A stretch of DNA of 42,078 nucleotides from Candidatus Sulfomarinibacteraceae bacterium (GTDB taxonomy: Bacteria; Chloroflexota; Anaerolineae; Promineifilales; Promineifilaceae). How positions within the stretch are numbered: the first letter of the stretch is position 1; every line of letters starts with the position of its first letter. Positions 2,025 to 40,736 of the stretch are shown here, piece after piece. The position numbers were made by a program, and so were the translations under genes. The notes beneath the pieces were generated by a model. That model was not told the DNA's origin and did no database searches. It worked only from the letters and a program-made list of their open reading frames with translations. Location: the NCBI GenBank assembly GCA_035464315.1, contig DATHSI010000227.1, forward strand, positions 1 to 42,078, given 5' to 3'.

Positions 2025-2362
2025 AGGGGCAGGATACTCCTCCTCATCGTTTCTAGCACTATACTGGCCCGTCCTGGCCTCTACCTGTCGCGCCGGCGAC
2101 GAAAAGAAGGCGCTTTTCCTTCGGACAGTGATCCCTTGACATACGGTCTATCCCTGCGGACAGGGGTATTATACGTCAAAGTGTCACAGATTGAAGTAAG
2201 ATAAGTTACCTGATTGTACCATAATCCGCGTTGCGATCCATTGGTTTGTGGCGCTGGCGGTAAGGAATACTTACAATCTAAGTGAACGAGAAAACAAGCC
2301 GCCCGAGTATGGGTGATGTCGAAAGGACGGAGAAACCGTTAGTAGAATCAATTGGAGTTGGC

Positions 2363-3010
2363 ATGTCGCAGGACACAGACCCGGATGACGATTGGCGCGA
2401 TGCCGTGCGCGAGGCGATGCATGAGGCAACGCTTCACGAAGCGCAGCAGCGCTTTGACAGCAGGGAGCCAGTTTACAATTATCGCTGGGAGCATGTGCGA
2501 GCTGTTCGTACGCTGGCCCTGAAGCTGGCACGGATGATGGGAGCCGACGAGGAGGTTGTGGAGGCCGCGGCATGGCTGCACGATGTGCGCAAGGTGGCCG
2601 GTGAGGAACACCCTGAAGAGGGGGCCGAATTTGCGCGCCGTTTCCTGGCCCAGACCAATTTTCCCCCCCATAAGATCGAACGCGTGGCCCAGGCCATTGC
2701 CGCGCACAAGGGGCTGTGGCGCGAGGAACCGTTACAGAGCGTGGAGGCGCAGGTGTTGTGGGATGCGGATAAACTCTCCAAGCTTGGCCTGACCGCCGCC
2801 TTCCACTGGACGGGGATGAGCTTCGCCAATGGCAATCCGCTGAGTACCGAAGACCTGATCGCCATGGCCCGCGATACCGATTGGCAGGAGAGGACTGTCG
2901 CCAGCATGCACACCCCGGCGGCGCGCCGGACCGCCGCAGAACGGTTGGCTTCGTATAACAAGCTCTGGGATTCTCTTGAGGCGGAACTGGAGGGGCGGGA
3001 TTTGCAGTGA
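2363..3010 (+). CDS. HD-domain metal-dependent phosphohydrolase
   Basis: Motifs AAWLHDVRKV and LWDADKL (the H...HD...D pattern of the HD superfamily). ATG at 2363 is preceded by GGAG at a 5-nt spacing. The ORF track starts earlier at a GTG (2282); which start is used is uncertain. Confidence 0.6.
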   Translation: MSQDTDPDDDWRDAVREAMHEATLHEAQQRFDSREPVYNYRWEHVRAVRTLALKLARMMGADEEVVEAAAWLHDVRKVAGEEHPEEGAEFARRFLAQTNFPPHKIERVAQAIAAHKGLWREEPLQSVEAQVLWDADKLSKLGLTAAFHWTGMSFANGNPLSTEDLIAMARDTDWQERTVASMHTPAARRTAAERLASYNKLWDSLEAELEGRDLQ

Positions 3011-3013
3011 ATG

Positions 3014-3073
3014 GGGATCGGAGATTAGCGATTAGTGAGCGAAACTGATTCAATCGCCAATCGCCAATCCCTA
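3014..3073. repeat. imperfect inverted repeat built from GATTAG/GATTGG heptad-like units (copy A of GGAGATY-type element), exactly between convergent stop codons
   Basis: Left arm ggggatcggagattagcgattagtgagcg, right arm attcaatcgccaatcgccaatcccta. Right arm is roughly the reverse complement of (GGCGATTG)n. The left arm contains TAG/TAG/TGA covering all three frames. Confidence 0.5.
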
Positions 3074-11934: not shown

Positions 11935-12654
11935 ATGAATGAAGAGCACAGAACCCCGCAGGCCAGCGATGCGGAACTGCTGGTCTACCTTGATGGTGAA
12001 CTACCACCCCGACGTGCCCGTGAAATTGAACAATCCGCAAGTAACCGTCAGCGATTGGCCGAGCTGGCGCAGCAAGAGCGCCAGCTGAAGCAGCACCTCT
12101 ACCGCAGCGCCTGCCCTGATGCCCATCAACTGGGCGAATACCATTTGCAGTTGCTCTCTGGGCCGGAGGCGGAGCGCATTGCAGCACACCTCGAAATCTG
12201 TCCTTATTGTGCGCAAGAGCTAAAGCAACTACTGGCGTACCTCGATGACGTGGCATCCGAACTGGAATACAGTGTGTTGGAGCGCCTAAAGGTGCTCGTG
12301 GCGCGGGTGTCGCCGGATCTGGGCGTTGGCGGTCCCCTGGCAGAGCCGGCGCTGGCAGGCGTCCGAGGCGACGATACGGGCCCCCTGGTTTACAGAGCAG
12401 AGGATGTCCAGGTCTCGCTGGAGGTGCAGGATGACGTCAACGCCGCCGATCACCGCAGTGTATTAGGCCTGGTCCTGGGCGCCGATGCGCAGGGTTGGGG
12501 CGTTTATCTCTGGCGCGAAGATGAGGAGATAGCGGACACGACGGTCGACGAGTTGGGCAACTTCATGCTCAGTGGCGTCGAACCGGATACCTATCGCCTC
12601 TTGCTTCACGGTGAACAGGTCCTGATCCACATTCCGGAACTCACTGTTTCCTGA
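11935..12654 (+). CDS. soluble zf-HC2 anti-sigma factor
   Basis: HLEICPYCAQELKQL matches the Hx3Cx2C zinc-finger anti-sigma motif. No predicted TM helix. Immediately downstream of the ECF sigma gene. Confidence 0.65.
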   Translation: MNEEHRTPQASDAELLVYLDGELPPRRAREIEQSASNRQRLAELAQQERQLKQHLYRSACPDAHQLGEYHLQLLSGPEAERIAAHLEICPYCAQELKQLLAYLDDVASELEYSVLERLKVLVARVSPDLGVGGPLAEPALAGVRGDDTGPLVYRAEDVQVSLEVQDDVNAADHRSVLGLVLGADAQGWGVYLWREDEEIADTTVDELGNFMLSGVEPDTYRLLLHGEQVLIHIPELTVS

Positions 12655-12659
12655 GGGAG

Positions 12660-15611: not shown

Positions 15612-15702
15612 ATCTTTCCGGAAAAGACGCTCGCTCTTCGTTTACATCCATGAAGTAGTTCCAGAGAGGGCTGCTTCTTTTCATCGTCTTAAATCGTGCC
15701 CT

Positions 15703-17445
15703 ATGCAACCGGAGTTCGTCATCATGTTGAAACGTCATTCGCAACTCTTTCTGCTCATCGCAGCCCTGGCAGCTTTTTCCCTGCTCGCCGTGGGCTGCCA
15801 GCCACAGCCGGAGCCGACGCCAGCACCGGAACCGTTCCCCGCACCGGTTGAGTTTGAGGCCAACGTCCTGCCGCCCGGTCCCGATCTACCCCGGGTCCAA
15901 TTGCGTCCGGGCCAGGCGCTGGTCGACGAACAGCTTGTGATCACCGGCGTCGGCGCAGACATCGACCGCGTGCTCGGTGCGCTGCCCGAGTTGCAGCTAG
16001 AGCCGTTGACCAGCACCTCTTTCGACTACCTGGAACGATACCAGTTGCCTGCGCCGGGCGGCGACCGGGATCAGCAGCAGAGCGTGGGCAAACGGCGCCG
16101 CAGCGGTCTGAGCTCCGTCATGCAGCAGGAGATGGCCACCCTGCGCGTTGACCTCTACGCGTTCTCCGCTGGCACTCCGCCGCTCTCCGACACACTGCAG
16201 ATCATCGCCGACACGGTTGAAGAGCTGGGCCAGGAACAGCAAGTACGCGTGGTCGCCGAGCCCAACTATGTGATGGGCTTCGAGATTACGGGCGACCCCT
16301 GGGCGGTTGAAGGCAGCCCGTGGGCCGTAGAGGGCAGCCCCTGGGCCGTGGAAGGGAGCCCCGCCGACGGCGGGCCGCATGCCAGCGATCACTTCTGGCA
16401 GCAGTGGGCCTTAGATGCCGGCAGCGGCATTGGCTTATTCTCTGCCGGCGCGCCTCCCGCCGGGCGTAATGCGGAGGGCGTGGGCGAGGGGATACGCGTT
16501 GCCGTTTTCGACACCTCGCCGTTTTCCGGCCCCGGCGGCTACCGTTTTGATCGCTGGGGACCGCCGGATGTACCGTCGCTGGCCCTCACTGTTTCAGAGC
16601 CGGTGGTGGTGCCCGTTTCTATGACCGGCGAGGATATTGTACTGATCAGCGACCACGGGCTCTTTGTCTCCGGCCTGGCCTACGCTGTGGCTCCCGCCGC
16701 CGAGATTCACCTGGTCAAGGTGTTGAATGAGCATGGGCAGGGCACGCTGCAGGCTTTCATCGACGCCCTGAACCTGTATATGCAGGAAAACGCCTCTCCG
16801 CCGGACGGCCTGAACAATACGATTATCAACCTCAGCCTGGGCACGTCGGAACCGGATGACGAGGAACTGCCGCCGGAAGCGCGACGCGCCATTGCGCGCA
16901 TGCTGGCGGTGTGGGGCTACCGGCCTCTGGCGGGCGAAGACAGCGTCGTCTTTTCGCTGGAATTGCCCATGCTCATCGCTGAAGGGCTGGGAGCCACCAT
17001 CGTCGCCGCTTCGGGCAATGACTCCATGAGCCCGCCGGAGGCCGCGCCGCTGCCGTCGCAGATTCCCGCCGCCTATCCGCAGATCCTTGGGGTCGAGGCC
17101 AGCAACCAGCAGCAGGCGCGTTCCTGCTTTGCTAACGAGGGCGATCTGGCTGCCCCGGGCGGCGATGGAGACGCCAACTGTGAGCCGGACCTGGAAGCCT
17201 GCGAAGGCATCGAGGGCGGCAGTTGCGGGGCCGGCGTTGTGAGCTATGTGCTGGCGGAACACGAGGGATTCGCCTACTGGGCGGGCACTTCGTTTGCCAC
17301 CCCCCTGGTCAGCGGCCTGGCGGGCCTGGTCCAGGAGGCGGGCGCCGGCAACCCCGACGTGGTACGTCAGACGGTGCTCTGCTCCGCTCAGAACACGGGC
17401 ATCGTAGATGTGGTGGAGGCGCTGACCAGTTGTGCCACGCCGTAG
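15703..17445 (+). CDS. subtilisin-like (S8) serine peptidase lipoprotein with PWAVEGS heptapeptide repeats
   Basis: Signal/lipobox LLAVGC. Asp region AVFDTS, His region SDHGLFVSGLAYAV, Ser region GTSFATPLVSGLAGL. Start taken at ATG 15703 (alternative 15724); the track ORF is extended upstream. Confidence 0.7.
   Translation: MQPEFVIMLKRHSQLFLLIAALAAFSLLAVGCQPQPEPTPAPEPFPAPVEFEANVLPPGPDLPRVQLRPGQALVDEQLVITGVGADIDRVLGALPELQLEPLTSTSFDYLERYQLPAPGGDRDQQQSVGKRRRSGLSSVMQQEMATLRVDLYAFSAGTPPLSDTLQIIADTVEELGQEQQVRVVAEPNYVMGFEITGDPWAVEGSPWAVEGSPWAVEGSPADGGPHASDHFWQQWALDAGSGIGLFSAGAPPAGRNAEGVGEGIRVAVFDTSPFSGPGGYRFDRWGPPDVPSLALTVSEPVVVPVSMTGEDIVLISDHGLFVSGLAYAVAPAAEIHLVKVLNEHGQGTLQAFIDALNLYMQENASPPDGLNNTIINLSLGTSEPDDEELPPEARRAIARMLAVWGYRPLAGEDSVVFSLELPMLIAEGLGATIVAASGNDSMSPPEAAPLPSQIPAAYPQILGVEASNQQQARSCFANEGDLAAPGGDGDANCEPDLEACEGIEGGSCGAGVVSYVLAEHEGFAYWAGTSFATPLVSGLAGLVQEAGAGNPDVVRQTVLCSAQNTGIVDVVEALTSCATP
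16297..16359 (+). repeat. 3 x 21-bp imperfect tandem repeat encoding PWAVEGS x3 inside the S8 peptidase gene
   Basis: ccctgggcggttgaaggcagc / ccgtgggccgtagagggcagc / ccctgggccgtggaagggagc. Confidence 0.6.
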
Positions 17446-17528
17446 CTGCGGTGGTTGCCAAGATCAGAGATTGCGTCAGTGCTGTATTGCCGGGCCAGCA
17501 TCGGGTTCATCGCACCCTCCTTTGTTAA

Positions 17529-17558
17529 CTTTACGTAAATATACGACTATGCTATAGT
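17529..17558 (+). promoter_or_regulatory. candidate promoter with extended -10 (TTTACG - 18 nt - TGcTATAGT) for the LysM gene
   Basis: AT-rich island in a GC-rich genome. It is followed by a short hairpin (ggggcgaagcccc) and a GAGGAGG SD before ATG 17618. Confidence 0.4.
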
Positions 17559-17617
17559 AAGCGGCAAAGATTGGGGCGAAGCCCCTTCGTCACTGTCTCA
17601 GTTGAGGAGGTGTAGAA

Positions 17618-18616
17618 ATGTCATCACGACAGAGCGTATTGAAGATAGCAGCATTCCTGCTTGTCGTGAGCCTGTTCCTGGCTGCGTGCGAGCGTCCCTT
17701 GCAGGACGCCGGCGACACGGCTGAGGAGGTGGCGACCGAGGTGGCCCAGGAGCTGGAAGAGGTGGATGGTGAGGAGGCGCCTGAGGAAACGGTGGCGCCC
17801 GCGCCAGATGAAGCCGAGGAAGCGGTGGCGACTGATGAGGAGACACCGGAAGCGACAGAAGTGCCAAGTGCGACGCCGGCGGACACGCCAGAAAGCGAAG
17901 TAGAGGACGACGCCTCGCCGCGGGCGGGTGATGACGAGGAAGCTGAGCCTACTGAAGAGGCGCAGGCTGACGACGAGGAAGAAGCGGAAGCGGCGGAAGA
18001 AACCGCGGCAGAAGACGAAGAAGCGGAGTCGGCAGAAGAGGAAATGGAAGCGGCCGAGGAGGAATCGGCGGAAGAAGCTGCGGCCACTGAGGCGGAGACG
18101 ACCGGGGAGGAGCGCGTGCACGTGGTGCAACCCGGCGAGAATTTGTACCGCATCGGCCTGCAGTACGGTATTTCCTGGGTTGTCCTGGCTGAGTACAACG
18201 GCATTCCCAACGCCAACGCCATCTACACGGGCCAGCAGATTCGGATACCGGCGACAGATGACGCCACGCCTACGCCTACGCCAACGCCGGATCCGTCTGC
18301 AGAGACGACGTACGTGGTGCAACCGGGTGACAATCTGTATCGTATTGGGCGCGCCTATGGTGTGAGTTGGGTGGAGATTGCCGAACTGAACGGCATTGTC
18401 AATCCCAACCAGATTTACGCGGGACAGGAGTTGCGGATCCCGGCTGAAGAGCCGGATCCCGCACCACAGGTGACGCACACGGTGCAGGCAAACGAGACGT
18501 TGTTCCGGATCAGCCTGCAGTACGGCGTGTCCTGGACGAGCATTGCCGAGGCCAACGATCTGACGTCGCCATACGTTATCTATCCCGGCCAGACGCTGGT
18601 TATCCCAGGCGGATAG
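17618..18616 (+). CDS. lipoprotein with acidic low-complexity region and three LysM domains
   Basis: Lipobox LAAC. Three repeats of the LysM pattern (HVVQPGENLYRIGLQYGISW..., YVVQPGDNLYRIGRAYGVSW..., HTVQANETLFRISLQYGVSW...). Confidence 0.75.
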   Translation: MSSRQSVLKIAAFLLVVSLFLAACERPLQDAGDTAEEVATEVAQELEEVDGEEAPEETVAPAPDEAEEAVATDEETPEATEVPSATPADTPESEVEDDASPRAGDDEEAEPTEEAQADDEEEAEAAEETAAEDEEAESAEEEMEAAEEESAEEAAATEAETTGEERVHVVQPGENLYRIGLQYGISWVVLAEYNGIPNANAIYTGQQIRIPATDDATPTPTPTPDPSAETTYVVQPGDNLYRIGRAYGVSWVEIAELNGIVNPNQIYAGQELRIPAEEPDPAPQVTHTVQANETLFRISLQYGVSWTSIAEANDLTSPYVIYPGQTLVIPGG

Positions 18617-22291: not shown

Positions 22292-22365
<74 letters not shown>

Positions 22366-22449: not shown

Positions 22450-23853
22450 TTGGCACGACGCAAACGCAGAACCAGAGATGAGCAACCGGGCGGCAGCGGC
22501 GCCCAGGCAGGGTGGCAGCCCAATCTGCTTACCCTCGTAGCCATCGCCGTCCTGTTCAGCGTGGTTGCGGCTCTTTTCCTGCGCAGCAACCAGGGCCGTC
22601 CTTTGGGGCTGCCCGGCGCTTATGCCTGGGTCAGCGCCCTGACTATCGCCTTCGTGCTGCGCCTGCTGATCCTCGCCCGCTACGTGCTGCCACCCGAGGC
22701 GGACAGCGGCGCCGGCTCAACCTCGAACCGCGAGAGGGAGCGAAGTTGGCGTGAGGGGCTGCACATGTTGTTCTACTACTTTGGCGTGTTGGCCATGCCC
22801 ACCTGGCTGCGCAATCGTCTGCGGGCGCCCGCGCGCCAGGTTCCCTTCAATCTGCCCCCTTCCTTCGCCGAGTTTGAGGCCGGTTTTTTGGAGAGTCACC
22901 GTTTCCTGGTTCTGGGCCGAGGCGTTCGCTTTTCTAGAGCCGCGGGTCCAGGATACGTGCACCTGCAAAAAGGGGAGCGCATCGAAGAAGTTGTGGATCT
23001 TCGCCGCCAGGAGCGGCAGCAGGTGGTGGAGGCTGTGACTCGCGACGGCATTGAGCTGGAGGCCACGATCACGGTTTCCTTCCGGATTCGACAACCGGGC
23101 GAGCGGGACGGAAATGACGCGCCTGCGCCGGGCGCCATCCCCTATCCCTTCGACCGCGACGCCGCCTTTCGACTCACTTATGCTGACGGGATGGGTCCCA
23201 CGTCGGAAATTCCCTGGAATGAGCGCATCCATCCCCGCGCCGCTGCCTTGTTGGTGGCCGAGTTATCCACATACCGGCTGGATGAGCTGTTCTTGCCGGC
23301 GCCCGATGAGACGCTTAATCCAGCAGACAATGTCTCTGAAGATGCCGTTGCGGCGGACAACGGCGAAGATGCCATGGTTTCACCAATCCAGAACATTACG
23401 CACGCTGTGCACACTAACTTGCGCGATGAGGAACTGTTGCAGATTTTCGACTGCAGCGAGGCTGACGAATGCCCCGTGGAAATCCTGGAGGTGAGCGTCG
23501 ACCGACTGCAGCCGCCGGAAGATGTAATGCAGGAGCGCATTGAGAGCTGGCAGGACGCCTGGCAGCGACGCCGGGCGCGAGAAAGCGCCGCCCGCGGAGC
23601 GAGTCCCGAGAGCGATAGGGCGCGCGCCGTCGCCATGCTCAGGCTCGTGGAACACGTCATGCGCGACATTGAAGACGTGGAGCGCGCAGAACGACGGGCC
23701 CTGTGTAATGCTGTTCTGAATAACGTAACCGCCTTGATAGAGGATCTGGTCGCCGACGGCGAGCGCCATGTCCTGCCGCAACACAATCGCGAGGCGCTTG
23801 AGGATGCCACCCTGTGGCTGAAAGATCTACCGGGACCGGAGGATGCCCGATGA
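22450..23853 (+). CDS. membrane protein with SPFH/band-7 domain (paralog A)
   Basis: Arg-rich N-terminus followed by two TM helices. SPFH-like core FLVLGRGVRFSRAAGPGYVHLQKGERIEEVVDLRRQERQQVVEAVTRDGIELEATITVSFRI. TTG start in the track. Confidence 0.55.
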   Translation: MARRKRRTRDEQPGGSGAQAGWQPNLLTLVAIAVLFSVVAALFLRSNQGRPLGLPGAYAWVSALTIAFVLRLLILARYVLPPEADSGAGSTSNRERERSWREGLHMLFYYFGVLAMPTWLRNRLRAPARQVPFNLPPSFAEFEAGFLESHRFLVLGRGVRFSRAAGPGYVHLQKGERIEEVVDLRRQERQQVVEAVTRDGIELEATITVSFRIRQPGERDGNDAPAPGAIPYPFDRDAAFRLTYADGMGPTSEIPWNERIHPRAAALLVAELSTYRLDELFLPAPDETLNPADNVSEDAVAADNGEDAMVSPIQNITHAVHTNLRDEELLQIFDCSEADECPVEILEVSVDRLQPPEDVMQERIESWQDAWQRRRARESAARGASPESDRARAVAMLRLVEHVMRDIEDVERAERRALCNAVLNNVTALIEDLVADGERHVLPQHNREALEDATLWLKDLPGPEDAR

Positions 23854-25511
23854 GCGGCGCTGATCAAGCTACGGCGCGCGTAGAGCACGCAGCAGAAAGA
23901 CCGGCGTGTGAGCCCGCGCGTCCACAGCCGATGCCTGGCCAATATCTGGCCATCGCCCTCTTTGTTCTCAGCTATTGGATGGTTGTCGGCGTCTGGTTGC
24001 AAGACGTGGATCTGACGCAACCGCCGCTCTGGTGGCAGGAGCAGGCGGCTGCCTTTCCGCTGCTAAGCGTAATTCCTACGTGGTTGGTCAGCTATGTTTC
24101 GACATTCGCTTCCTGGGCGGCGGCGCGCCACATACTGATCCCCTTTGTGGCCGGCTGGTGGCTGGCTAACGCCGTGGGCAATGGATTTGTACAGAGCTTC
24201 TACAATTTCCCGACCAGGGCGGAGGCAGCGCGATTCCTGCATCGCCTGCAGCAGCAAAGGAGCGGCGGCTCGGTGGCCGCGTCCCCCCGGCGTCTGCACC
24301 CGACGATGATGCTGACCCTGATCACGGCGCCGTTTGCCTTTCTCTTCGTACTGCTCATCGTCATTTCTGTGGTCGGCCCCTCCACCTTGCGCGGCAGCGC
24401 CCTCTACAACGCTCTTCTGGTGATATTGGGCGGCGTGTGGTTCATTATGGTCGTCGCCTACTTGCTCAGCCAGTTCATGGGAGACGCACCGGCTCCCGGA
24501 TTGCACCTGCAGCGTGACACCCTGGACGAGATGCGCAAGACACAGACGCTGCTGCGCGTGGGCGGGCCGGGCCGCGTCATTGTGGGCAACAGCGATGCCG
24601 CGATCACCGAATATAATGGGCGCTTCTGCCGCGTGCTGGGACCGGGCGCGCACAGATTGCGTTCCTTTGAATATGTGAACGCGGTCGTGGACCTGCGTCC
24701 CCAGGAGCGCCACGGCGAAATTCAGGCCATGACGCGGGATGGCATTGCAGTGTCGGTTGACGTCTCGGTGACTTTCCGCATTGATCGAGATGATCGCCAC
24801 TTTGGCGACGACCTCAGCAGCAATGGGGGCCACGGCGAGGCCCCGCGGCCCACCAAGGAACAACTGTACCTGTTTGGACGGCGAGCGGCGGCGCAGGCGG
24901 CGTACGATGAAGCGCTTGTGCCTGACCCGCAAAGCGGTTTGAAGGGCCGCGCTCAGGCCCTGTTATGGTCCTCTCGCCCGCTGACCGTCGTGGCCCGTGA
25001 ATTCCGCCAGGCGCTGAGTGAAACGCCTCTTATCGAGCTTTTCGATCCGGAGAGCCGTAAGCAGGCGCTGCACGTCGACCTGCTGCAAAACATCAGGCGG
25101 GACAGCCGCGCCAGCCTTCATGACGATGGCATTGAGTTGATTTCCCTGCATCTGGGCCCTTTGCGAGTGCGCGAGGAAATCCTGACTCAGCACCTTAACG
25201 ACTGGCGCTCTTACTGGCAGGAGCAGCGCATTCAAGAACAGGAGATCGAGGTGCAAACAACCCTGGTCGAGCGCGCGCGCAAGGAAGCCGAGGTGATGAT
25301 GTTGCGCGCCGTTTTGGAAAGCATTCAGGAGGCGCAGTACGAGGACGGCGCTCGCCTGTCTCGCGACGAGGTGGCCCGACGCCTGCTGCAGGCATTGGAC
25401 GGCGCTATGTACGATTTACCGCCTCCCCCCAATGTAGAGGAGGGGGAGGATGTGCTGGAGCGTCTGCGCGCCCTCCATGCCCGCCTTTCACCGGGTGATA
25501 CTGAGTGGTAG
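23850..25511 (+). CDS. polytopic membrane protein with SPFH/band-7 domain and C-terminal coiled coil (paralog B)
   Basis: Several N-terminal TM helices. SPFH-like core LRVGGPGRVIVGNSDAAITEYNGRFCRVLGPGAHRLRSFEYVNAVVDLRPQERHGEIQAMTRDGIAVSVDVSVTFRI. ATG at 23850 overlaps the upstream stop (ATGA). Confidence 0.55.
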   Translation: MSGADQATARVEHAAERPACEPARPQPMPGQYLAIALFVLSYWMVVGVWLQDVDLTQPPLWWQEQAAAFPLLSVIPTWLVSYVSTFASWAAARHILIPFVAGWWLANAVGNGFVQSFYNFPTRAEAARFLHRLQQQRSGGSVAASPRRLHPTMMLTLITAPFAFLFVLLIVISVVGPSTLRGSALYNALLVILGGVWFIMVVAYLLSQFMGDAPAPGLHLQRDTLDEMRKTQTLLRVGGPGRVIVGNSDAAITEYNGRFCRVLGPGAHRLRSFEYVNAVVDLRPQERHGEIQAMTRDGIAVSVDVSVTFRIDRDDRHFGDDLSSNGGHGEAPRPTKEQLYLFGRRAAAQAAYDEALVPDPQSGLKGRAQALLWSSRPLTVVAREFRQALSETPLIELFDPESRKQALHVDLLQNIRRDSRASLHDDGIELISLHLGPLRVREEILTQHLNDWRSYWQEQRIQEQEIEVQTTLVERARKEAEVMMLRAVLESIQEAQYEDGARLSRDEVARRLLQALDGAMYDLPPPPNVEEGEDVLERLRALHARLSPGDTEW

Positions 25512-25572
25512 GTTGGTAGTGGCAGCTTCAGCCGCCTAGCAGCTAAGGCCGCCACTACCAGCCCGCGATGGC

Positions 25573-26766
25573 TCAGCGCGGGGGGAGCCCGACCGGGCGC
25601 TGCGAGGCGCTCTTGTCCAGGGCCAGTTCCGCACTCTGCAACTCATAGGCGCCCATATCCACCAAGGCGTTGACGATGCGCGGGTGGTCCGCCAGGTCGT
25701 TGCCTACATCGCTGATGGTGGCTGCGCCGCTGCCCGCGCCGTCCAGATCGGCGTCGTTGTCGCCGGCGTCAACGGCCGGGGAGCCGGGCTGCAGGCGCAG
25801 ATCGCCGTAGTCATTGTCCGTCAGCGTGGTCCAGTCGCCGTCGCCGGAATCGGGCGCCCGCGTGAAGAGCGGATCGGTGTCGATATTATTGCCGCCGTAT
25901 TCGGCCACATTTCCGCTAAACGAGACGTTGGCCAGCGCCGGAGCTGTATAGCTGACGGCCATACCGCCGCCTTACAGGGCCAAGTCACCGGTGAAGTCCA
26001 CGTTTAGGAGGGTGAGGTTGCTGTTGCCGTCGAATGCATTACTCTGCGCTGCCGGCACGTTTTCGCTAAAACCAATGGCGGCCAGGCCGCCGCCTCCGTC
26101 ATCGGGGAAAACTAAACCGTCGGCCGATCCCGCGGTGATGATAAACCCATCGAGCACGGCGCTGCTGTCGGTGTCTATACTGGTGACCACGTGATAGGCA
26201 TTCTCGCCGCTGATATCTTCTGCGTCGTTGACTACGCCGTCGACATCCGTGCTGTCGGGAAACGTCTCGTGGTCAATGTCGCCGCTGAGCACGGTGATAT
26301 TATTTTCCCAATCTCGCTCCTCCCGTTGCGCCTCCGTACCGTCAAAGCCGCCGTAGATGGCGACTCCGTTCTGCAGCATAAAGGTGGACGTGCGATCATC
26401 ATTGGTCTGGCCTGCGCCTTCGTCTGGGTAGTAAACGCTGGCGGCGACCCAGATTTCGTCGCCACTGGCGGCGACCGCCAGGGCATCCTGTAGCGTGGGG
26501 TAGGCATTGTCCCAACTGCTGCCGTCTCCGGCGCCGCCGGCGTTGGCGTCGACGTAGAGGATGCTGGACTGCGCCTGCGCTGCGCCCGGCCCCAGCAACA
26601 TCAACAGGAATACGGTTGCGCACAGGGCCGCGACGGTGCTGAGAAGCAACACAAAGGCAGGACGGTATGCGGTCAGACGTGGGGTGCGTGAATTCATGAC
26701 GAGCCTCTCCGAGGTGCGGATGATTATTTCGTTAGTATAGATGGTGGCTGTTGTCCAAACTGGCAA
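25573..26766 (-). pseudogene. secreted parallel beta-helix / choice-of-anchor-Q-like protein interrupted by a single in-frame TAA (25972-25974)
   Basis: The two track ORFs (25972..26766 and 25573..25962) are in the same frame, separated only by TAA + GGCGGCGGT. N-terminus has a TM/signal segment. C-terminal part has SFSGNVAEYGGNNIDTDPLF...AVDAGDN...VDMGAYE, typical of beta-helix adhesin-like domains. Confidence 0.5.
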
Positions 26767-28759: not shown

Positions 28760-29236
28760 ATGGCAGAGATGCTAAACATCAAGCCTGGAGAAGTACCTGA
28801 GAATGACGCCGGCTACCTGGAGATGATGACCAAGGTCATCTTCATGGGCGGATTAAACCGGCAGGTGGTGGAGAGTAAGTGGGACGGTTTCCTGAGCGCT
28901 TTTGAAGAGTTCGACCCGGCTGGCGTGGCCAGTTTCACTGAAGAGGATGTGGAACGGTTGAGTGAGGACGAACGCATCGTGCGCTATGGGGCCAAAATCC
29001 GCGCTGTGGTGAAGAATGCCGGTCGCATGGTGGAGATCGCCGACGAGCATGGTTCCTTCGGCCAGTGGCTGCGCAGCTCCGTGCGCGACGAAGGCGTCGA
29101 CGACACGGCGCGAGCTCTATCCAGGCACTTCAGCTACGTCAGTGAGGAATCCGCCCGGCGCTACCTCTACGCCGTAGGCGAGGATGTCGGTGAGGTGACG
29201 AAGGAAGTGCGGCGCAAGTATGGGCCGGGGGAATAG
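28760..29236 (+). CDS. tag: DNA-3-methyladenine glycosylase I (Tag) family protein, short form
   Basis: YLEMMTKVIFMGGLNRQVVESKWDGFLSAFEEFDPAGVASFTEEDVERL...IVRYGAKIRAVVKNAG aligns with the E. coli Tag core (LFEMICLEGQQAGLSWITVLKKRENYRACFHQFDPVKVAAMQEEDVERL...IIRHRGKIQAIIGNA). AAAAGGAG SD before ATG 28760. It lacks the N- and C-terminal Zn-ligand segments of E. coli Tag. Confidence 0.6.
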   Translation: MAEMLNIKPGEVPENDAGYLEMMTKVIFMGGLNRQVVESKWDGFLSAFEEFDPAGVASFTEEDVERLSEDERIVRYGAKIRAVVKNAGRMVEIADEHGSFGQWLRSSVRDEGVDDTARALSRHFSYVSEESARRYLYAVGEDVGEVTKEVRRKYGPGE

Positions 29237-29403
29237 GAGAGATTGGAGATTGGTTGACTGGAGATTGGTTGCGGATGGCGCCATAGCGCCAAGCCGATAA
29301 ACGCAGATAATTTGAGATCTTTCATCAGCGTCTATCGGCGTCCATCGGCGGCAAAGATTCTCCAATCTCCAGTCTCCGATCTCCAATCTCCGATCTCCAA
29401 TCC
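29237..29403. repeat. GGAGATY-heptad inverted-repeat element, copy B (two arms of tandem heptads flanking an ~80-nt core), between convergent stop codons
   Basis: Left arm ggagagattggagattggttgactggagattggttgcgg. Right arm tccaatctccagtctccgatctccaatctccgatctccaatccc, i.e. (GGAGATY)n inverted. The core contains the palindrome atggcgccat. The element abuts the TAG of tag (+) and the TAG of the minus-strand GT-C gene. Confidence 0.6.
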
Positions 29404-31941
29404 CTATTCTCTCACAACCACCGGTCCCAATATGTACCGATCCCCAACCAGGTTGCCCTGCGCGTCGGCCAGGTGCAGGCGGCGACCGCTGGTCATTTCG
29501 TAGAGACCGACTTCGATGAAGTAATCGCCCGGTGGGAGGTCGTCCCTGATCGTCAGGCGATAGGGGTCCCACAGGCGTTGGCCGGGGAGCCACTTGGGAA
29601 TCCACAGGTGGGTGGGGGCGGCGCCGCCCAGGGGCGTGTAATCCAGCTCTTGATAGGAGCGGTTGGCGGCGTCGATGAGGTGCACGAAGACAGTATAGCT
29701 TTCCTCAGCCTGCGCCAGACTACGCCACTGCAAGAACAGATTGATTGTGTCGCCGTTCTGCACCGTCAGCGGCGTCTGCCACGGGCCGCGGCGCAGCGAT
29801 AGACCGCTCTGGGCCCAGGCCATAGACAACCCCACACGCTGGCGGAAGTTGGCCAGGAGCTCGTCTGTGTGCGGCGGGCGCGGCTGCGCCCGGACCTCTA
29901 GCGGCCCCAGTTCCACGTCCAGCGGCAGAAGCTCGTCCTGGCTCAGGTTCTTGAGAGCCAACGACAGCGGGTAGCTGCCCGCGGGCAAATCGTGGGGCAG
30001 TGCGAAGTCGAAACGTTCTACAATTACCTCTTCCGGTTCCCACAGCGGCGTCAGGAGGTGGTGGTCCGTCGTGTAAGTGTATTCAATGGCCTGCTTATCG
30101 CCTCCAGACGGCACGCCGCCCAGCGCGAGCGAGGGCACGTAGTACTCCTCCGGCGTTTGTGGTGCACGCATGGCCAGGACGAGGGGCACGAAGTCGCCCG
30201 CCGTTACCTCGCGCCGGGGCAGCCCGTAACCAACGACCTCGATCTCCCCCGCCGAGACCGCAAGCTCGTCCAGCTCCGGCGGGATGGATTCCTCGCCCGG
30301 TTCCACCACCTCGTAGAACGGTCCGCGCGGTCGCAGCCGGAAACCGGCGGCGACAATCTCGCTGCGGTAGCCGTTAAGGTAGACGGGGCCGCCGCCCAGG
30401 TAAGCGTAGACGCTTTCCACCCACGGTTGTTGTGTGGAGACGAATTCGGGGCGCACGTCGGTGGGATCGGGCCAGCGCTCGTTTACAAAGCGCTCGTACC
30501 ACATGGGCGTCATGTGCTCCCAGTCGTGCAGCAGCACGGCGCGCTCGGCGCGGCCCTCAAAGTAGTCGAAAACCGCTTCCACATAGCCGCGTCCCTCGTC
30601 GTAGTCGCGCAACGAAATGTGCGGCAGGTTGCGCGCGGCCTGTTGCACGGGTCCCAGCAAAAAGAAGACGGCGACGAGCAAGGCTGCGACGCGCGCGGTG
30701 GATTGTGCCCACCGGCCGGACTGCGTCCAGCGGCTGGATAAAATCCAGCTTGGCGCGGCGTGTACGACGGCCAGCAGCCCCAGGCCGGAGAGCATGCCCC
30801 AGAGCATGAAGGGTCCCAGCAGGTAGGCCATGATGTCCTGCGCGCGCAGGCTGATGACGAACGCGTAGTTGGCCAGGAAGGCCACACCGTAGAGCAGCGC
30901 CAGCCGCCGGCGCAGCGGGCCGGCGCGCCACAGCCACAGCAAGCCCAGCGGCGCCAGCAGGATGGTGGGCAACGCGTACTGCAGCCGCATCAGCGTCCAG
31001 AAAACGAGGGTGCGCAAAGGCTGTTCGGCCAGGCTGTAGAAGGGCAGGCTCTCCGTCAGCCCGCGGGCCAGAACGTGGTCCAGAAAGCCCTGTAGCGTGT
31101 TCATGTTGTGCGGCCCGAACACCGGCTCCATCGCGCTGCGCAGAGGGAAGTAGAGCCACACGCTTAACCCCAGCAGCGCCATCAGCAATGTCCTGACGAT
31201 GGTACGTCCCTGACGCCAAATGCCGGGGCGCACGGTAAGGATGAACAGGCCATAGGCGGGGAAGCCGAAGACGGTCAGTGGATGGTGCGTGATGCCCAGC
31301 CCGGCGGAGAGAGCGAAGATGTACAGCCAGCGGTCGTCCCCCTCATCGGTCAACTTGCCGGCGTCTCCGGCGTGGGAGAGTCCCCAGCGCGTCAGGAGGT
31401 AGAGGTTGGCCATGAGGAAAGTGGCCGTGATGATGTGCGGGTTGGCGTGAATGGCGTGTTGCCACACGTCGGTTGCCAGGCCCACGGACAGCGCGCCGAA
31501 TAGGGCCGCCCACCCCGCCGGGAATCGGTCTGGCTCACGCCCGGCGACGGCGCGGATCATTCCGTATATGAAAATGGCGGCAACCGTGGCGCTGGTTGCC
31601 GACAGCAGGTGCATGCGCCACGGAATGTCGCCCAAGGGAATCAACGTCTGGAACAGTTTGCCGGCGAGGGTGATGAAGGCATACCCTGGCGGATGGGCGA
31701 TGCCCAGCACGTTGGCCACCAGCGTATACTCGGTCGGATCGCCGAGGACGAGGGAGCGGGCGAGGGTGAGGAGATAGAGGAGGGGAAGGGCGAGGAGGAG
31801 TAGGGGCTGGAGATTGGAGATTAGAGATTGGGGATTAGAGATTGGAGATTGGAGATTACTGGCACGCCTCGCCGCTCGCCGCTCTCCGCTCTCCGCTCTC
31901 CGCTCTCCAATCACCATGCCCTTACTTCCTGATTGCGTCAT
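29404..31941 (-). CDS. DUF2723/TMEM260-like GT-C family membrane glycosyltransferase (protein O-mannosyltransferase-like)
   Basis: Polytopic N-terminal half with GDPTEYTLVANVLGIAHPPGYAF (the DUF2723 signature region), then a large C-terminal soluble domain. The first ~40 codons of the track ORF are encoded by repeat copy C; the true start may be ATG 31917 or further downstream with a non-ATG start. Confidence 0.6.
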   Translation of the reverse strand: MTQSGSKGMVIGERRAESGERRAARRASNLQSPISNPQSLISNLQPLLLLALPLLYLLTLARSLVLGDPTEYTLVANVLGIAHPPGYAFITLAGKLFQTLIPLGDIPWRMHLLSATSATVAAIFIYGMIRAVAGREPDRFPAGWAALFGALSVGLATDVWQHAIHANPHIITATFLMANLYLLTRWGLSHAGDAGKLTDEGDDRWLYIFALSAGLGITHHPLTVFGFPAYGLFILTVRPGIWRQGRTIVRTLLMALLGLSVWLYFPLRSAMEPVFGPHNMNTLQGFLDHVLARGLTESLPFYSLAEQPLRTLVFWTLMRLQYALPTILLAPLGLLWLWRAGPLRRRLALLYGVAFLANYAFVISLRAQDIMAYLLGPFMLWGMLSGLGLLAVVHAAPSWILSSRWTQSGRWAQSTARVAALLVAVFFLLGPVQQAARNLPHISLRDYDEGRGYVEAVFDYFEGRAERAVLLHDWEHMTPMWYERFVNERWPDPTDVRPEFVSTQQPWVESVYAYLGGGPVYLNGYRSEIVAAGFRLRPRGPFYEVVEPGEESIPPELDELAVSAGEIEVVGYGLPRREVTAGDFVPLVLAMRAPQTPEEYYVPSLALGGVPSGGDKQAIEYTYTTDHHLLTPLWEPEEVIVERFDFALPHDLPAGSYPLSLALKNLSQDELLPLDVELGPLEVRAQPRPPHTDELLANFRQRVGLSMAWAQSGLSLRRGPWQTPLTVQNGDTINLFLQWRSLAQAEESYTVFVHLIDAANRSYQELDYTPLGGAAPTHLWIPKWLPGQRLWDPYRLTIRDDLPPGDYFIEVGLYEMTSGRRLHLADAQGNLVGDRYILGPVVVRE
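31808..31912. repeat. GGAGATY-heptad element, copy C: (GGAGATT/AGAGATT)x7 followed by (CGCTCTC)x4
   Basis: ggagattggagattagagattggggattagagattggagattggagatt ... cgccgctcgccgctctccgctctccgctctccgctctcc. It overlaps the annotated 5' end of the GT-C ORF on the minus strand. Confidence 0.6.
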
Positions 31942-33040
31942 AGATTCTCAGCGTTTCCTGCGCCGCGCGCGCCCAGCTGAAACGGGCGGCCTGTTCCAGG
32001 CCTAGATGCCGGCGTTGATGGTAGTCGTCGCTGTCCTGCAGCAGGCGGCGAATCACGTTCGCCATTTCCTCGGTGCTGGTGGGATCGAAGTAGGCCGCTG
32101 CGTCGCCGCCCACTTCAGGGTGCGAGCTGCTGTTGCTGGCGGCGACGACCTGGCCACAGGCCATATGCTCCAGGAGCGGCAGGCCGAAGCCTTCGTAGAG
32201 GCTGGGCTGCACGGCGAGGTCGGCGGCGGCAATGACGGCGGGTAAATCGTCGTCCGCCACCCAGCCCAACGGCACAACCGCATCCTGTAGGCCCAGCTCT
32301 TCGATGCGCGCGAAGAAATCGTCGTAGAGCCAGCCCTTGCTGCCTGCCAGGACCAGGTGCAGGTCGGGGTAGTCGCGGCGCACGATGAGCAGCGCGTCCA
32401 GTAGGCGACTCAGGTTCTTGCGCGGTTCGATGGTGCCCAGGTGAATCAGGAACTGCGGGGGCAGATCGTACTGTGCCCGCACGCGTTGCACGTCTCGCGC
32501 CTCCGGTGGGCGGAAATGATCGGCCGCTGCTTCGTGAACGACGTGTATCTTAGCCGGATCGACCGCGTAATGCGTGATGATATCCTGTCGTGTGGCCTGC
32601 GAAACGGCCACGATGGCTGCGGCGCGCCGGCAGAAAATGGGCATGGCTGCGTTCAGAAACCAATAATTTAACTTTTTGTGGTAGGCGGGAAAGAGCTTGA
32701 AAATCAGGTCGTGCACCGTGAGGACGGTGGGCACGCCGCGCAGGGGCAAGAGCAGATGCTCCGTGCTGTGGAACAGCGTGGCGTCCGGCACCAGGCGGTT
32801 GAAACCCTTCCGGCTGAGGTGGCCCAGCAACACCAGCATGCGCCACGGTTTGTAGCCCAGCTTTATGCTGCGGCGGGGAGCCGAGGCCAACGAGGTGGGC
32901 AGGACACCGTCGGCCCCTCTATTATAGAAAAGAGCGATCTCCTCCGCTCGCTGCGCGCGCAAAGCCTGCGCCAGTCGCTCGCTGTAGCGGCCAAGGCCGG
33001 CCCGGCTGTGAACGGCTGCCGACACATCTACGTAGATCAC
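31922..33040 (-). CDS. glycosyltransferase family 4 (GT-B, retaining)
   Basis: EGFGLPLLEHMACGQVVAASNSSSHPEVGGDAAAYFDP is the classic GT4 EX7E region. GTG start at 33040. Confidence 0.75.
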   Translation of the reverse strand: MIYVDVSAAVHSRAGLGRYSERLAQALRAQRAEEIALFYNRGADGVLPTSLASAPRRSIKLGYKPWRMLVLLGHLSRKGFNRLVPDATLFHSTEHLLLPLRGVPTVLTVHDLIFKLFPAYHKKLNYWFLNAAMPIFCRRAAAIVAVSQATRQDIITHYAVDPAKIHVVHEAAADHFRPPEARDVQRVRAQYDLPPQFLIHLGTIEPRKNLSRLLDALLIVRRDYPDLHLVLAGSKGWLYDDFFARIEELGLQDAVVPLGWVADDDLPAVIAAADLAVQPSLYEGFGLPLLEHMACGQVVAASNSSSHPEVGGDAAAYFDPTSTEEMANVIRRLLQDSDDYHQRRHLGLEQAARFSWARAAQETLRIYDAIRK

Positions 33041-33085: not shown

Positions 33086-33127
33086 ATCATGCTTGCTCCA
33101 TCATGCTTGCGCCATCATACTTGCTCT
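33086..33127 (-). repeat. 3 x 14-bp tandem repeat (minus strand GGnGCAAGyATGAT) spanning the epimerase stop and the GT4 5' leader
   Basis: Plus strand atcatgcttgctcc / atcatgcttgcgcc / atcatacttgctct. Each unit carries an SD-like GGAG/GGCG/AGAG + ATGAT on the coding (minus) strand. Confidence 0.7.
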
Positions 33128-34068: not shown

Positions 34069-34120
34069 AGATTCTCCTTTGCCTCGCGGATTTTATGGGC
34101 GTAGGGCATTGGTGGCAAGC

Positions 34121-34250
34121 GGCCGAGCTCTGCTCGGCTGGGGCCAAGCTTCGCTCGGCTGGGGCCAAACGAAGTTTGGCCGGGCCTGACCGCTGCTTAG
34201 TCAGGATTGAACTTCGTTTGGCCGGGCCTGACCGTTGCTTAGCCAGGGTT
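34121..34250. repeat. structured intergenic region: two 17-nt direct repeats (period 20) and two 27-nt direct repeats (period 42) with embedded hairpins
   Basis: gctcggctggggccaa at 34133 and 34153. gtttggccgggcctgaccg(c/t)tgcttag at 34174 and 34216. Hairpins gccgagc-tct-gctcggc and ggccaaa-cgaag-tttggcc. A longer stem pairs aaacgaagtt with aacttcgttt. Confidence 0.6.
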
Positions 34251-34259
34251 GGAGTTTGT

Positions 34260-37384: not shown

Positions 37385-38239
37385 TCAGGTTCTAATGGTG
37401 ATTATGCGGTCGTGCCCGCCGTAATCGGGTATCACAGTGACTCGGGCGGCGGGGAATACAGATTGCGCCAAATCCCGGGCGGCCGGGCCCTGGCGCCAGC
37501 CAATTTCCAGAAAAATGGCGCCGCCCGGTTCAAGCCGGGAACGAGCCTGGTGCAGCAGACGGCGAATGAAGTCGAGGCCATCCGGTCCACCACGCAGCGC
37601 CCCGGCGGGTTCGTACCATTTTACCCCATCGTCGATTGCCGTCCACTCCTCATCTGTAATGTAGGGCAGGTTAGCAACGATCAGATCGGGCCTCTGTGCC
37701 AGCGGTTCGAGCAACGACCCCTGCACGAACGTGACCCGGCCTTTCTCCCCGCTTTGGCCGGCGACGCCGTGGCGCGTGGCGTTCTCTCGCGCCACGGTCA
37801 GCGCCGCCGCCGAGACGTCGATGGCCAGGATCGTGGCCTGCGGCAAGTGGCGCGCCAGGGTCACGGCGATGCAACCACTGCCGGCGCCCACATCCACGAT
37901 ATACTGCGCCTCGTGTTCCTCGGCCCAGGCGATTGTGTGCTCTACCAGGAGCTCCGTTTCCGGACGCGGGATAAGTACGTCCGGCGTCACCTTGAAGGTC
38001 AGTCCGTAGAAGGGGGCTTCGCCGGTGATATAGGGGATTGGCTCCCGCTTTACCGCGCGCGCCACCAGAGCGCGAAAGGCAGTTTCCTCATCGTCCTGTA
38101 ACCGCTGCTGGGGGTGAGCCGCCAGATAGCTGTGCGCCACGCCCATCACATATTGCAGTAACAGCCGTGCATCCCCTGCGGCGGTGGGCGACGCCTGCAA
38201 CTGGCGGCGGGCCCAGGCGAGGGCTTGCTGGATGGTCAT
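37385..38239 (-). CDS. prmC: release factor glutamine N5-methyltransferase PrmC (HemK)
   Basis: HemK N-domain with VLIPRPETELLVE. SAM motif DVGAGSGCIAVTLA. Catalytic motif present as NLPY (IVANLPYI), a variant of NPPY. Confidence 0.8.
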   Translation of the reverse strand: MTIQQALAWARRQLQASPTAAGDARLLLQYVMGVAHSYLAAHPQQRLQDDEETAFRALVARAVKREPIPYITGEAPFYGLTFKVTPDVLIPRPETELLVEHTIAWAEEHEAQYIVDVGAGSGCIAVTLARHLPQATILAIDVSAAALTVARENATRHGVAGQSGEKGRVTFVQGSLLEPLAQRPDLIVANLPYITDEEWTAIDDGVKWYEPAGALRGGPDGLDFIRRLLHQARSRLEPGGAIFLEIGWRQGPAARDLAQSVFPAARVTVIPDYGGHDRIITIRT

Positions 38240-38247
38240 GGGGGGAC

Positions 38248-38352
38248 TAGAGATTGGAGATCAGAGATTGGAGATCAGAGATCGGAGATTGGGAAACTTA
38301 CGCTCTCCAACCTCGAATCAACCAATCTCCAGTCAACCGATTTCCAATCTCC
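38248..38352. repeat. GGAGATY-heptad inverted-repeat element, copy D; its distal end overlaps the last codons and stop of cysC
   Basis: Left arm agagattggagatcagagattggagatcagagatcggagattggg. Right arm cgctctccaacctcgaatcaaccaatctccagtcaaccgatttccaatctcccc. The 17-mer ccaatctccagtcaacc is the exact reverse complement of ggttgactggagattgg in copy B. Confidence 0.6.
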
Positions 38353-38896
38353 CCTGTGGAATCAACTGCTGTTGCTCCAGATAATGCAATATTTGTTGCG
38401 CGCTTTCTTGCGGTGTCTGGCGGTCGGTGCGCACGTGGATGTCGGGGCGCACGGGCGCTTCGAAGGGGTCGGAAATGCCGGTGAAGTTTTCGATTTCGCC
38501 GGCGATGGCTTTCTCGTATAGCCCTTTTACGTCACGCTCTTTTACTACTTCCAGAGGGGCGTCGACAAAGACTTCGATGAAGTTAGTGGTTTCCTCGCGC
38601 ACTTTGTCGCGCACCGCCTGATAAGGCGAGATGAAGGAGCAAATGCAGGCGATGCCGTTGCGCGAGAGCAATTTGGCCACGAAGGTCACGCGCTCGATGT
38701 TCTTATCGCGGTCTTCCTTGGTGAACCCGAGATCGCGCGTCAGGCTCTCGCGGACCACGTCGCCGTCGAGGCGCTCCACTTTGAGCCCGCGCTTCTTAAG
38801 TTCTTCTACCAGAATGAGGGCAATAGTCGTCTTGCCGGCGCCGGAGAGGCCCGTCATCCATACAACAAAGCCCGGGTGTGTGTGATTGTCGTTCAT
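38333..38896 (-). CDS. cysC: adenylyl-sulfate (APS) kinase
   Basis: P-loop VVWMTGLSGAGKTT. Classic CysC length and motifs (ICSFISPY, GEIENFTGI). Confidence 0.85.
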   Translation of the reverse strand: MNDNHTHPGFVVWMTGLSGAGKTTIALILVEELKKRGLKVERLDGDVVRESLTRDLGFTKEDRDKNIERVTFVAKLLSRNGIACICSFISPYQAVRDKVREETTNFIEVFVDAPLEVVKERDVKGLYEKAIAGEIENFTGISDPFEAPVRPDIHVRTDRQTPQESAQQILHYLEQQQLIPQGRLEIG

Positions 38897-38915
38897 GATC
38901 CTATGCTCTTTCTAA

Positions 38916-40736
<1,821 letters not shown>

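Follow-up and report, generated by a model that had tools for sequence, protein, structure and literature searches.

Four dispersed inverted-repeat elements, copies A to D, lie in the DNA analyzed here, a stretch of 42,078 nucleotides (nt) from contig DATHSI010000227.1 of a Candidatus Sulfomarinibacteraceae bacterium (Chloroflexota, Promineifilaceae), which we refer to as the window. Their arms consist of GGAGATY-type heptads on one side and of complements or near-complements of these on the other. On balance, we favor the reading that they are heptanucleotide simple-sequence-repeat hairpins, of the kind represented by the short tandemly repeated repetitive (STRR) sequences and by the "heptameric simple-sequence repeats", and not classical transposable elements. 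They constitute a new repeat family in a kind that has already been described yet is mechanistically unexplained.

Results

Anatomy and Enrichment of the Four Arrays

As an earlier note on this DNA had claimed, four heptad inverted-repeat arrays are present in the window (Table 1). The sequence GGAGATYGGAGAT, with at most one mismatch, matched the window 17 times, always within the four arrays, compared with 0.08 matches expected from shuffles; RGAGATY matched 44 times, compared with 15 expected. Tandem Repeats Finder reported period-7 or period-14 arrays in both arms of copies B, C, and D and in the right arm of copy A, and an arm of copy D has a 14-nt sub-period. The units found in the copies are GGAGATT, AGAGATT, GGAGATC, AGAGATC, GGGGATT, CAATCGC, and CGCTCTC. 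The architecture proposed earlier, i.e., heptads in one arm and their complements in the other, stood with two qualifications. Copy A, which is short, has a different heptad (CAATCGC) in its right arm, and in copy C the second arm (CGCTCTC) complements the first only in part.

Because the arms are inverted, the arrays have hairpin potential. On both strands, each of the four folded as a single long, imperfect hairpin, as had been predicted, with RNA fold z scores (plus/minus strand) of -5.1/-6.2 for copy A, -7.3/-8.2 for copy B, -2.1/-4.5 for copy C, and -4.7/-5.8 for copy D; i.e., all lay between -4.5 and -8.2 apart from the plus strand of copy C. The exact 17-mer that copies B and D had been said to share was also found: GGTTGACTGGAGATTGG, an irregular sequence, occurs exactly twice in the window, once in each of these copies, and was absent from 126 other loci searched. 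The interior of copy B (~90-97 nt) contains two small hairpins of its own. That this interior is a nested dispersed repeat was considered and rejected, the motif CGTCCATCGGC occurring in three loci in unrelated contexts.

Position Relative to Genes in the Window

The description of the family as dispersed, flush with or overlapping gene ends, and STRR-like held up, and the two copies placed between convergent stop codons fill their spacers completely. Pfam bore out the gene names that the note had given (Table 1). Copy A occupies the interval between the TGA of the HD-domain gene (3008-3010) and the stop of a convergent 415-residue open reading frame (ORF; stop at 3075-3077), whereas copy B exactly spans the spacer between the stop of the tag-like gene (29234-29236) and that of the GT-C gene (29404-29406). 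Because the tag-like and GT-C genes both terminate in GAATAGG, the palindrome of copy B takes in both stops.

The other two copies overlap coding sequence, as the earlier note had also stated. Copy D encodes the last six codons of CysC (GRLEIG) and its TGA (38333-38335), and finishes 9 nt upstream of the prmC ATG (38237-38239); in an array-free relative, CysC ends RVVAG at the equivalent position. Copy C, which had been assigned to the annotated start region of the GT-C gene, lies within the GT-C open frame and runs straight into transmembrane helix 1. The public call for this gene (P0121, 837 residues, 100% identical) starts at ATG 31915-31917, upstream of the whole of copy C in gene sense and 10 nt past the GT4 stop (31922-31924). 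Because the flanking genes are unrelated, the copies do not represent a single duplicated segment.

Table 1. Coordinates of the heptad arrays, their shared 17-mer, and the flanking genes in the window
Feature	Position	Strand	Composition or basis
HD-domain gene	2282-3010	+	Pfam
Copy A	3013-3073	.	GGGGATC GGAGATT AGCGATT AG left arm (3013-3035); 15-nt loop; right arm (CAATCGC)2.7 CAATCC (3051-3073)
Methyladenine glycosylase-like (tag-like) gene	28760-29236	+	Pfam
Copy B	29237-29403	.	Purine arm GAGAGATT GGAGATT GGTTGACT GGAGATT GG (29237-29268); pyrimidine arm of six RRTCTCC units (29358-29405)
Irregular 17-mer GGTTGACTGGAGATTGG	29252-29268 and 38322-38338	+ and -	Exact match between copies B and D
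TMEM260-like GT-C gene	29404-31941	-	Pfam
Copy C	31808-31912	-	In gene sense: ATG GTG ATT (GGAGAGC)4 (GGCGAGC)2, loop, seven RATCYCY units
GT4 gene	31922-33040	-	Pfam
PrmC gene	37385-38239	-	Pfam
Copy D	38248-38352	-	In gene sense: degenerate purine arm GGAGATT GGAAATC GGTTGACT GGAGATT GGTTGAT..., loop, (AATCTCY GATCTCY)3
APS kinase (CysC) gene	38333-38896	-	Pfam

Variation at the Same Junctions between Relatives

The GT4/GT-C junction was compared between the window and four relatives. Two of these, L121 and L124, share 96.8% identity across 2.5 kb; the sole indel between them is 42 nt, corresponding to six units in one arm. The window is 87% identical to both at the DNA level, with (GGAGAGC)4(GGCGAGC)2 in place of their 8-14 (R)GAGATC units, and with seven units in the second arm compared with ten AATCTCC units in L121 and L124. 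In L121 the arms have been homogenized separately, with GATC-type units on one and GATT-type units on the other. A member of a different genus, L125, carries (GGAGAYT)7-loop-(AATCTCY)4 at this junction, and in yet another genus (L126) the GT4 and GT-C genes overlap and there is no array. The change of unit number between strains, together with the separate homogenization of arms, is microsatellite behavior. The contigs of the closest relatives L121 and L124 are only 2.5-4 kb long; that of L121 ends (at 2521) 66 nt past its element (2265-2455), and that of L124 continues for ~1.7 kb beyond its own.

L127, the closest metagenomic relative, retains only a short remnant at the cysC/prmC junction, with the loop GGAGAGCGTAA(A)G in common with copy D. 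In a more distant relative (L132:6350-6431; PrmC 56% identity), the spacer is filled by a (GGTAATT)4-GC-(CAATTAC)3 hairpin, at the same junction and with the same polarity as copy D but with a different unit. A heptad array is lacking at this junction in at least ten further relatives, mostly without any significant hairpin. A conserved hairpin at this junction was rejected, as hairpins were significant only where heptads were present.

Distribution across Genomes

The best protein matches of the window were to metagenome-assembled genomes (MAGs) named as Chloroflexota, Anaerolineae, Promineifilaceae, and Ardenticatenaceae. When one genome per species (596 Gb) was scanned by exact pattern for a GGAGATT-type unit, at least 120 loci were returned. 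Among the 120 matches listed, 74 are from Chloroflexota, i.e., from Ardenticatenaceae, Caldilineaceae, Anaerolineales, Promineifilaceae, and Candidatus Leptovillus/Leptofilum. Scattered matches in other phyla are unsurprising, because by our own calculation ~1000 chance matches are expected in 596 Gb. Within the same list, 23 of the 74 Chloroflexota loci, compared with 0 of the 46 others, had at least two units on each strand inside a span of 130 nt, and the Chloroflexota loci contained 153 arms in 533 kb. The enrichment extends well beyond the window, the motif being present in many Chloroflexota genomes; heptad hairpins typify the Anaerolineae-type Chloroflexota, throughout which they are common.

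In relatives, the arrays have further heptads next to them (GGTCATT, CTCACCC, GTGAACA, ACTGGGG, GGTAATT, and GCTCTCC), and the unit of the right arm of copy A recurs elsewhere, one relative using CAATCGT/CAATCGC. The relative L122 (55% GC) contains six arrays in 21 kb built from CGATTGA, CAATCGT, CAATCGC, and ACAATTG (e.g., 74-150, 706-773, and 8298-8331). This richness in other heptads indicates that unit type varies by lineage around a common GATTG core. Arrays were more alike within a genome than between genomes (0.36 versus 0.42, p = 0.004), and the window and a close relative are distinguished by GATC-type units.

Heptad arrays were also seen in 29 viral contigs of IMG/VR (L157-L185; e.g., L179:12037-12190) with at least three GGAGATY units, compared with ~0.5 expected by our own estimate. 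In all 29 the arrays are single-armed (one has 19 units), and they are uninformative for hairpins.

Polarity, Ends, and Orientation

In the Chloroflexota loci listed, 35 of 38 inverted pairs had the polarity 5'-(GGAGATT)n-loop-(AATCTCC)n-3' and three had the opposite polarity. All four copies in the window carry the majority polarity, with the purine arm 5'. One of the pairs of opposite polarity (L008:1330-1450) is enclosed by an outer palindrome of GGTGAYW heptads, so that the arrangement may be nested. The loops of the Chloroflexota pairs are 1-65 nt long and unrelated in sequence. When 84 element ends were aligned, only a fading heptad was seen, with no fixed terminus and no conserved core, and there was no target-site duplication at the 11 intragenic copies inspected.

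Single arms follow an orientation rule. With GGAGATT on the coding strand defined as forward, forward arms outnumber reverse arms after stops (12 versus 4), whereas reverse arms predominate before starts (6 versus 3) and inside ORFs (18 versus 4). At a junction of any type, this rule gives the 5'-GGAGATT...AATCTCC-3' polarity that was observed, and it agrees with the positions reported as preferred in Xanthomonas and Nostoc. A plausible cause would be avoidance of Shine-Dalgarno-like GGAG and of TTG/ATT codons upstream of or inside genes.

Paired elements in relatives (n = 37) were located at 20 tandem, 1 convergent, and 3 divergent junctions and, in 11 cases, inside ORFs. At the tandem junctions the upstream stop was no more than 20 nt from the purine arm in 18 of 20 and within the arm in 13, and it was often a TAG formed by ATT|AGAGATT. 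An ATG was present in ~12 of 42 loops by visual count, which is about the chance rate, and the idea that the loops serve to place start codons was rejected.

Arrays as Coding Sequence

It follows from their sequence that pure (GGAGATT)n or (AATCTCC)n arrays have no stop in any of the six frames, and arrays can therefore overrun gene ends. The AGAGATT variants create TAG at ATT|AG. The arrays as a whole have few stop codons and, judging from their sequence, are probably often translated. In each of the four genomes compared at the GT4/GT-C junction (the window, L121, L124, and L125), the whole element can be read through in the GT-C frame and in no other. The ATG adjoins the GT4 stop in three of the four, and there is no in-frame GT-C start downstream of the array. 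Heptad-coded N-terminal tails (e.g., NLQSLISNL) were found in 10 of 117 GT-C orthologues, from at least four clades. Given the open frame and the tails in orthologues, copy C is best read as part of the coding sequence.

Two of the proteins encoded by relatives contain in-frame elements relative to solved homologues: QueG has two and DnaE has one, of 22 residues. The DnaE element lies in a loop between FTL and LWMGLGQVR (the segment from PHVN.S to LWMGLGQVR has a modal length of 29 residues). This loop is a hot spot, several unit types accounting for the in-frame, heptad-coded insertions that different lineages have there (P0241-P0360). The clade of L093 (3443-3505) retains a decaying, vertically inherited copy. 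Many of the DnaE matches are only 300-410 residues long. Recurring peptides were limited to the periodic (EIGDWRL)n and (SPISNLQ)n, of variable length and without a core.

Other Features of the Window

None of the ORFs in the 42-kb window contained transposase, RAYT, integrase, or reverse-transcriptase domains. Copies A to D had no match in Rfam at the gathering score, the sole match in the window being a tRNA gene (22292-22365, minus strand). The spacer between an SPFH-like gene (23814-25511, plus strand) and a convergent ORF (25573-25962, minus strand) is filled by a non-heptad inverted repeat (25511-25563) with 25-nt arms, a 3-nt loop, a z score of -3.1, and no T-run.

A Sat-CysC fusion (PUA_2, ATP-sulfurylase, and APS kinase domains) directly precedes the second, stand-alone APS kinase (38333-40682, minus strand), and the two are arranged in the same way in L126. 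In the spacer upstream of the epimerase gene (34069-34259) there are 21- and 42-nt tandem repeats with a strong fold (z = -6.1, minus strand). A similar sequence, as judged by eye, is present in L121 (1-139), and a promoter-like TTGCCA-17-TAAAAT is located at 34118-34090 (minus strand). Between the epimerase stop and the GT4 start, the 14-mer GAGCAAGCATGATG is repeated 2.9 times (33086-33126). It is single-copy in L121 (1080-1100), and the repeat looks like a recent local tandem duplication. Finally, a four-gene run at 11935-18616, encoding zf-HC2 (anti-sigma-like), a 983-residue TPR-CHAT protein, a subtilase, and a triple-LysM protein, may be a conflict or cell-wall module.

Discussion

Origin and Persistence of the Arrays

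According to the simple-sequence-repeat reading, each arm would consist of GGAGATT-type units, or of the complement of these, repeated in tandem, and slipped-strand mispairing would cause arms to gain, lose, and homogenize units, a step evidenced by the strain polymorphism and by the 14-nt sub-periods within arms. Occasional exchange of sequence between arrays within one genome may also contribute, as suggested by the 17-mer common to copies B and D and by the genome-specific flavors of the units. Selection would then filter the positions and orientations in which arrays persist. The purine arm, with its Shine-Dalgarno-like GGAG and its TTG/ATT codons, would be retained just after stops on the coding strand, and the pyrimidine arm before starts or inside ORFs. 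Arrays could in this way donate stop codons and C-terminal residues, as in copy D, N-terminal tails, as in copy C, or in-frame protein loops. A role as terminators or insulators at convergent ends (copies A and B) is possible, if unproven.

Several points count against this reading. Slippage accounts for the growth and shrinkage of arms, but not for the first appearance of a two-armed hairpin inside dnaE or queG. The strict polarity is also found in intragenic pairs, where a filter acting on stops and starts cannot operate. The master unit GGAGATT dominates many distantly related genomes (in a sample selected on GGAGATT), which hints at a sequence-specific generator or constraint. In addition, the source genome was examined through the 42-kb window only, a small sample, and the gene contexts in relatives come from our own rough GC3-weighted caller, which recovers 75-90% of reference calls.

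Possible Active Insertion

The most serious alternative, which we regard as possible though unlikely, is that a trans-acting enzyme actively inserts or generates the hairpin as a unit, i.e., as a non-autonomous element, its heptad arms being incidental, resembling REPINs, Rickettsia palindromic elements (RPEs), or MITEs (transposable elements of the miniature inverted-repeat type), with slippage acting only afterwards. Copies are dispersed at unrelated loci, and complete two-armed, in-frame copies occur in dnaE, queG, hypF-like, and membrane-protein genes at sites that are empty in homologues. The 35:3 polarity is what would be expected of a structure recognized in a fixed 5'-3' sense. There are also precedents, RPEs being found in frame (PMC10969869) and REPIN hairpin doublets being moved by RAYTs (PMC3116915). 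The 17-mer of copies B and D, the greater likeness of arrays within a genome, the dominance of GGAGATT, the polarity, and the intact intragenic hairpins together keep this model alive.

What argues against active insertion is the lack of a conserved terminal sequence, loop, or length and of target-site duplications, the fact that the arms of a single element are not mirror images, and the behavior of orthologous junctions, which differ in unit type or keep remnants instead of showing presence or absence of one element. No transposase, RAYT, or reverse-transcriptase domain was found in the window ORFs, although 42 kb is a small sample. The proposal in the earlier note that these might be MITE-like mobile elements is not supported: neither the termini nor the loop or core are conserved, target-site duplications and a discrete size are lacking, the window has no transposase or RAYT, and the same junction varies in array length and unit type between related genomes. 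A further reading, which we consider quite unlikely, is that the hairpins, with their purine arm always 5', are actively seeded by a sequence- and structure-specific activity common to Chloroflexota, Xanthomonas, and filamentous cyanobacteria. They would then be a new, translation-compatible class of palindrome occupying spacers and the permissive loops of essential proteins such as DnaE.

Possible Functional Hairpins

It seems improbable that the elements are functional RNA or DNA hairpins, acting as bidirectional terminators, as stabilizers of mRNA 3' ends, or as intercistronic regulators of translation. The folds are very stable, the arrays are flush with stop codons, and copies A and B fill convergent spacers, another of which (25511-25573) has a non-heptad hairpin. 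The annotated GT-C start is also in or adjoining the hairpin loop in L121, L124, and L125. However, no element was called terminator-like, such sites being found 6 times in the region compared with 7.4 expected. An intrinsic terminator, i.e., a GC-rich stem-loop followed by a U-tract, was rejected, there being no T-run after any of the four copies. Copies also occur within essential coding sequences, the two arms drift apart in sequence, and at the cysC/prmC junction a significant hairpin is lacking in most relatives.

Fold energies of sense and antisense RNAs were compared for 34 elements of known orientation, and sense-strand RNA was not more stable than antisense (13 versus 21, p = 0.23). 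Given this lack of bias, the asymmetry of wobble pairs gives no sign of selection on an mRNA hairpin. The suggestion made previously that the elements are terminators or attenuators is therefore not upheld: T-runs are lacking, copies lie inside dnaE, queG, and other genes, and the sense RNA is not favored.

Improbable Readings: Phase Variation, Protein Binding, and G-Quadruplexes

For copy C alone, the heptad array might be a contingency locus, with changes in unit number that are not a multiple of three switching GT-C off; we consider this distinctly improbable. Heptanucleotide repeats switch E. coli neuO off, and the array of copy C lies in an open frame without an in-frame start downstream, in a gene of a surface-glycan locus. 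The one polymorphism observed between strains, of 42 nt, keeps the frame, but in a single comparison that is a matter of one-in-three luck. Rehm et al. argued against phase variation for analogous repeats (PMC4692102). In addition, the Chloroflexota repeats are found in housekeeping genes, where switching would be lethal, and variant units interrupt their arrays, lowering slippage.

Very improbable, in our opinion, is the idea that the arrays are putative binding sites for a nucleoid protein or for a multimeric protein reading triplets at 7-nt spacing, (NAG-N4)n. The HutP-type ring proteins of Bacillus read triplets in this way, and an invariant GAG/TAG triplet at 7-nt spacing, together with the occurrence of the master unit GGAGATT across many genera, would fit such a model. 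However, that sample was selected on GGAGATT, there is no candidate protein, and the sites, which number in the hundreds, lie within genes as well as outside them, and occur in either orientation, are unlike those of a specific regulator. G-quadruplex formation was rejected, because GGAGATT has only GG runs and GGGG is confined to rare variant units.

Significance

In many bacteria no other long simple repeats are as over-represented as those of heptamers, yet how these arose, why they are paired in a "convergent" architecture, and what they do have gone unexplained since 1990. Because the Chloroflexota family cannot form G-quadruplexes and yet has the polarity and position rule of the Xanthomonas repeats, it argues against a G-quadruplex explanation and in favor of a general cause. 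There are also practical consequences. The arrays shift annotated starts and stops, and the heptad-coded tails and loops in DnaE, QueG, and the glycosyltransferase could mislead annotation and protein-family alignments. In the closest relatives, contigs stop close to or inside elements, weak evidence that the repeats may break MAG assemblies. We regard the family as being of moderate interest, for its coding-compatible behavior and its strict polarity.

Comparison with Known Repeat Families

A literature search for the exact repeat found no bacterial paper. MITEs differ from the family described here, which has no fixed-end terminal inverted repeats, target-site duplication, conserved interior, or discrete length. 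The REP/REPIN sequences mobilized by RAYT transposases (Bertels and Rainey, 2011; PMC3116915) are analogues in behavior, being short, dispersed, mostly extragenic sequences arranged as hairpin-forming inverted doublets, in many cases at gene ends. They differ in having a conserved sequence of 20-40 nt and a linked RAYT gene, whereas the window family has no conserved palindrome or head beyond the heptad, its terminal TAG is the ATT|AG of the heptad, and its length is variable.

RPEs, likewise analogues in behavior, are palindromic elements located in frame in unrelated protein genes and translated (PMC10969869), as are the repeats in QueG and DnaE and copies C and D of the window. They are ~100-150 bp long with a family consensus encoding a conserved peptide, whereas the heptad arrays are variable and without a core. 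A family of the same kind as the window arrays comes from within the phylum, the (GATAGRA)n satellites of Chloroflexus aurantiacus being a dispersed family derived from one heptamer (Subirana and Messeguer, 2019; PMC6749651). Their unit resembles GATTGGA and GATTAGA, cyclic permutations of window units. They differ in belonging to the class Chloroflexia and in having another unit, and neither hairpin pairing nor overlap with coding sequence has been described for them.

The earlier note had assigned the arrays to no named family. The closest described kind comprises the heptameric simple-sequence repeats reported from Xanthomonas and from Nostoc (PMC4692102), together with STRR. Calothrix heptanucleotides, i.e., STRR, are mentioned in the same paper (PMC4692102).

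The cyanobacterial STRR were reportedly described by Mazel et al. in 1990. The canonical units, from heterocystous cyanobacteria, are CCCCAGT, TTGGTCA, and CAACAGT, and STRR are found in filamentous bacteria, where they serve as strain-variable markers. The Chloroflexota repeats likewise vary between strains and form tandem arrays of heptanucleotides, with several types of unit in a genome, and two of the neighboring heptads in relatives, ACTGGGG and GGTCATT (TTGGTCA-like), resemble STRR1 and STRR2. They differ from STRR in the strict sense in their other units, in their Chloroflexota host, and in the paired hairpins, which are not part of the STRR definition.

The heptamer repeats of Xanthomonas (GGGAATC) and of Nostoc PCC 7120 (GGGGA(C/T)T), a type for which Mrazek (2007) is also a source, were described by Rehm et al. 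(2015; PMC4692102). They are arrays of heterogeneous 7-nt tandem units, mostly intergenic and located near the upstream ORF's 3' end, and in Xanthomonas 70-75 pairs are in the "convergent" inverted orientation (PMC4692102). Related Xanthomonas species have the same intergenic sites occupied by arrays that differ in length and sequence and are of unknown function, and the authors stressed the G-tracts capable of forming G-quadruplexes (PMC4692102). The Chloroflexota family is similar in almost all of these respects. It too is over-represented and consists of dispersed arrays of ~2-26 heterogeneous 7-nt units in tandem, with convergent-pair polarity, a site near the 3' end of the upstream ORF, and variation in length and sequence at the same site between relatives. 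GGGGATT and GGGGATC even occur among the variant units of the window. The differences are the Chloroflexota host, the lack of G-tracts of three or more in the master unit GGAGATT, and the large share of Chloroflexota copies that overlap or lie inside coding sequence, in frame.

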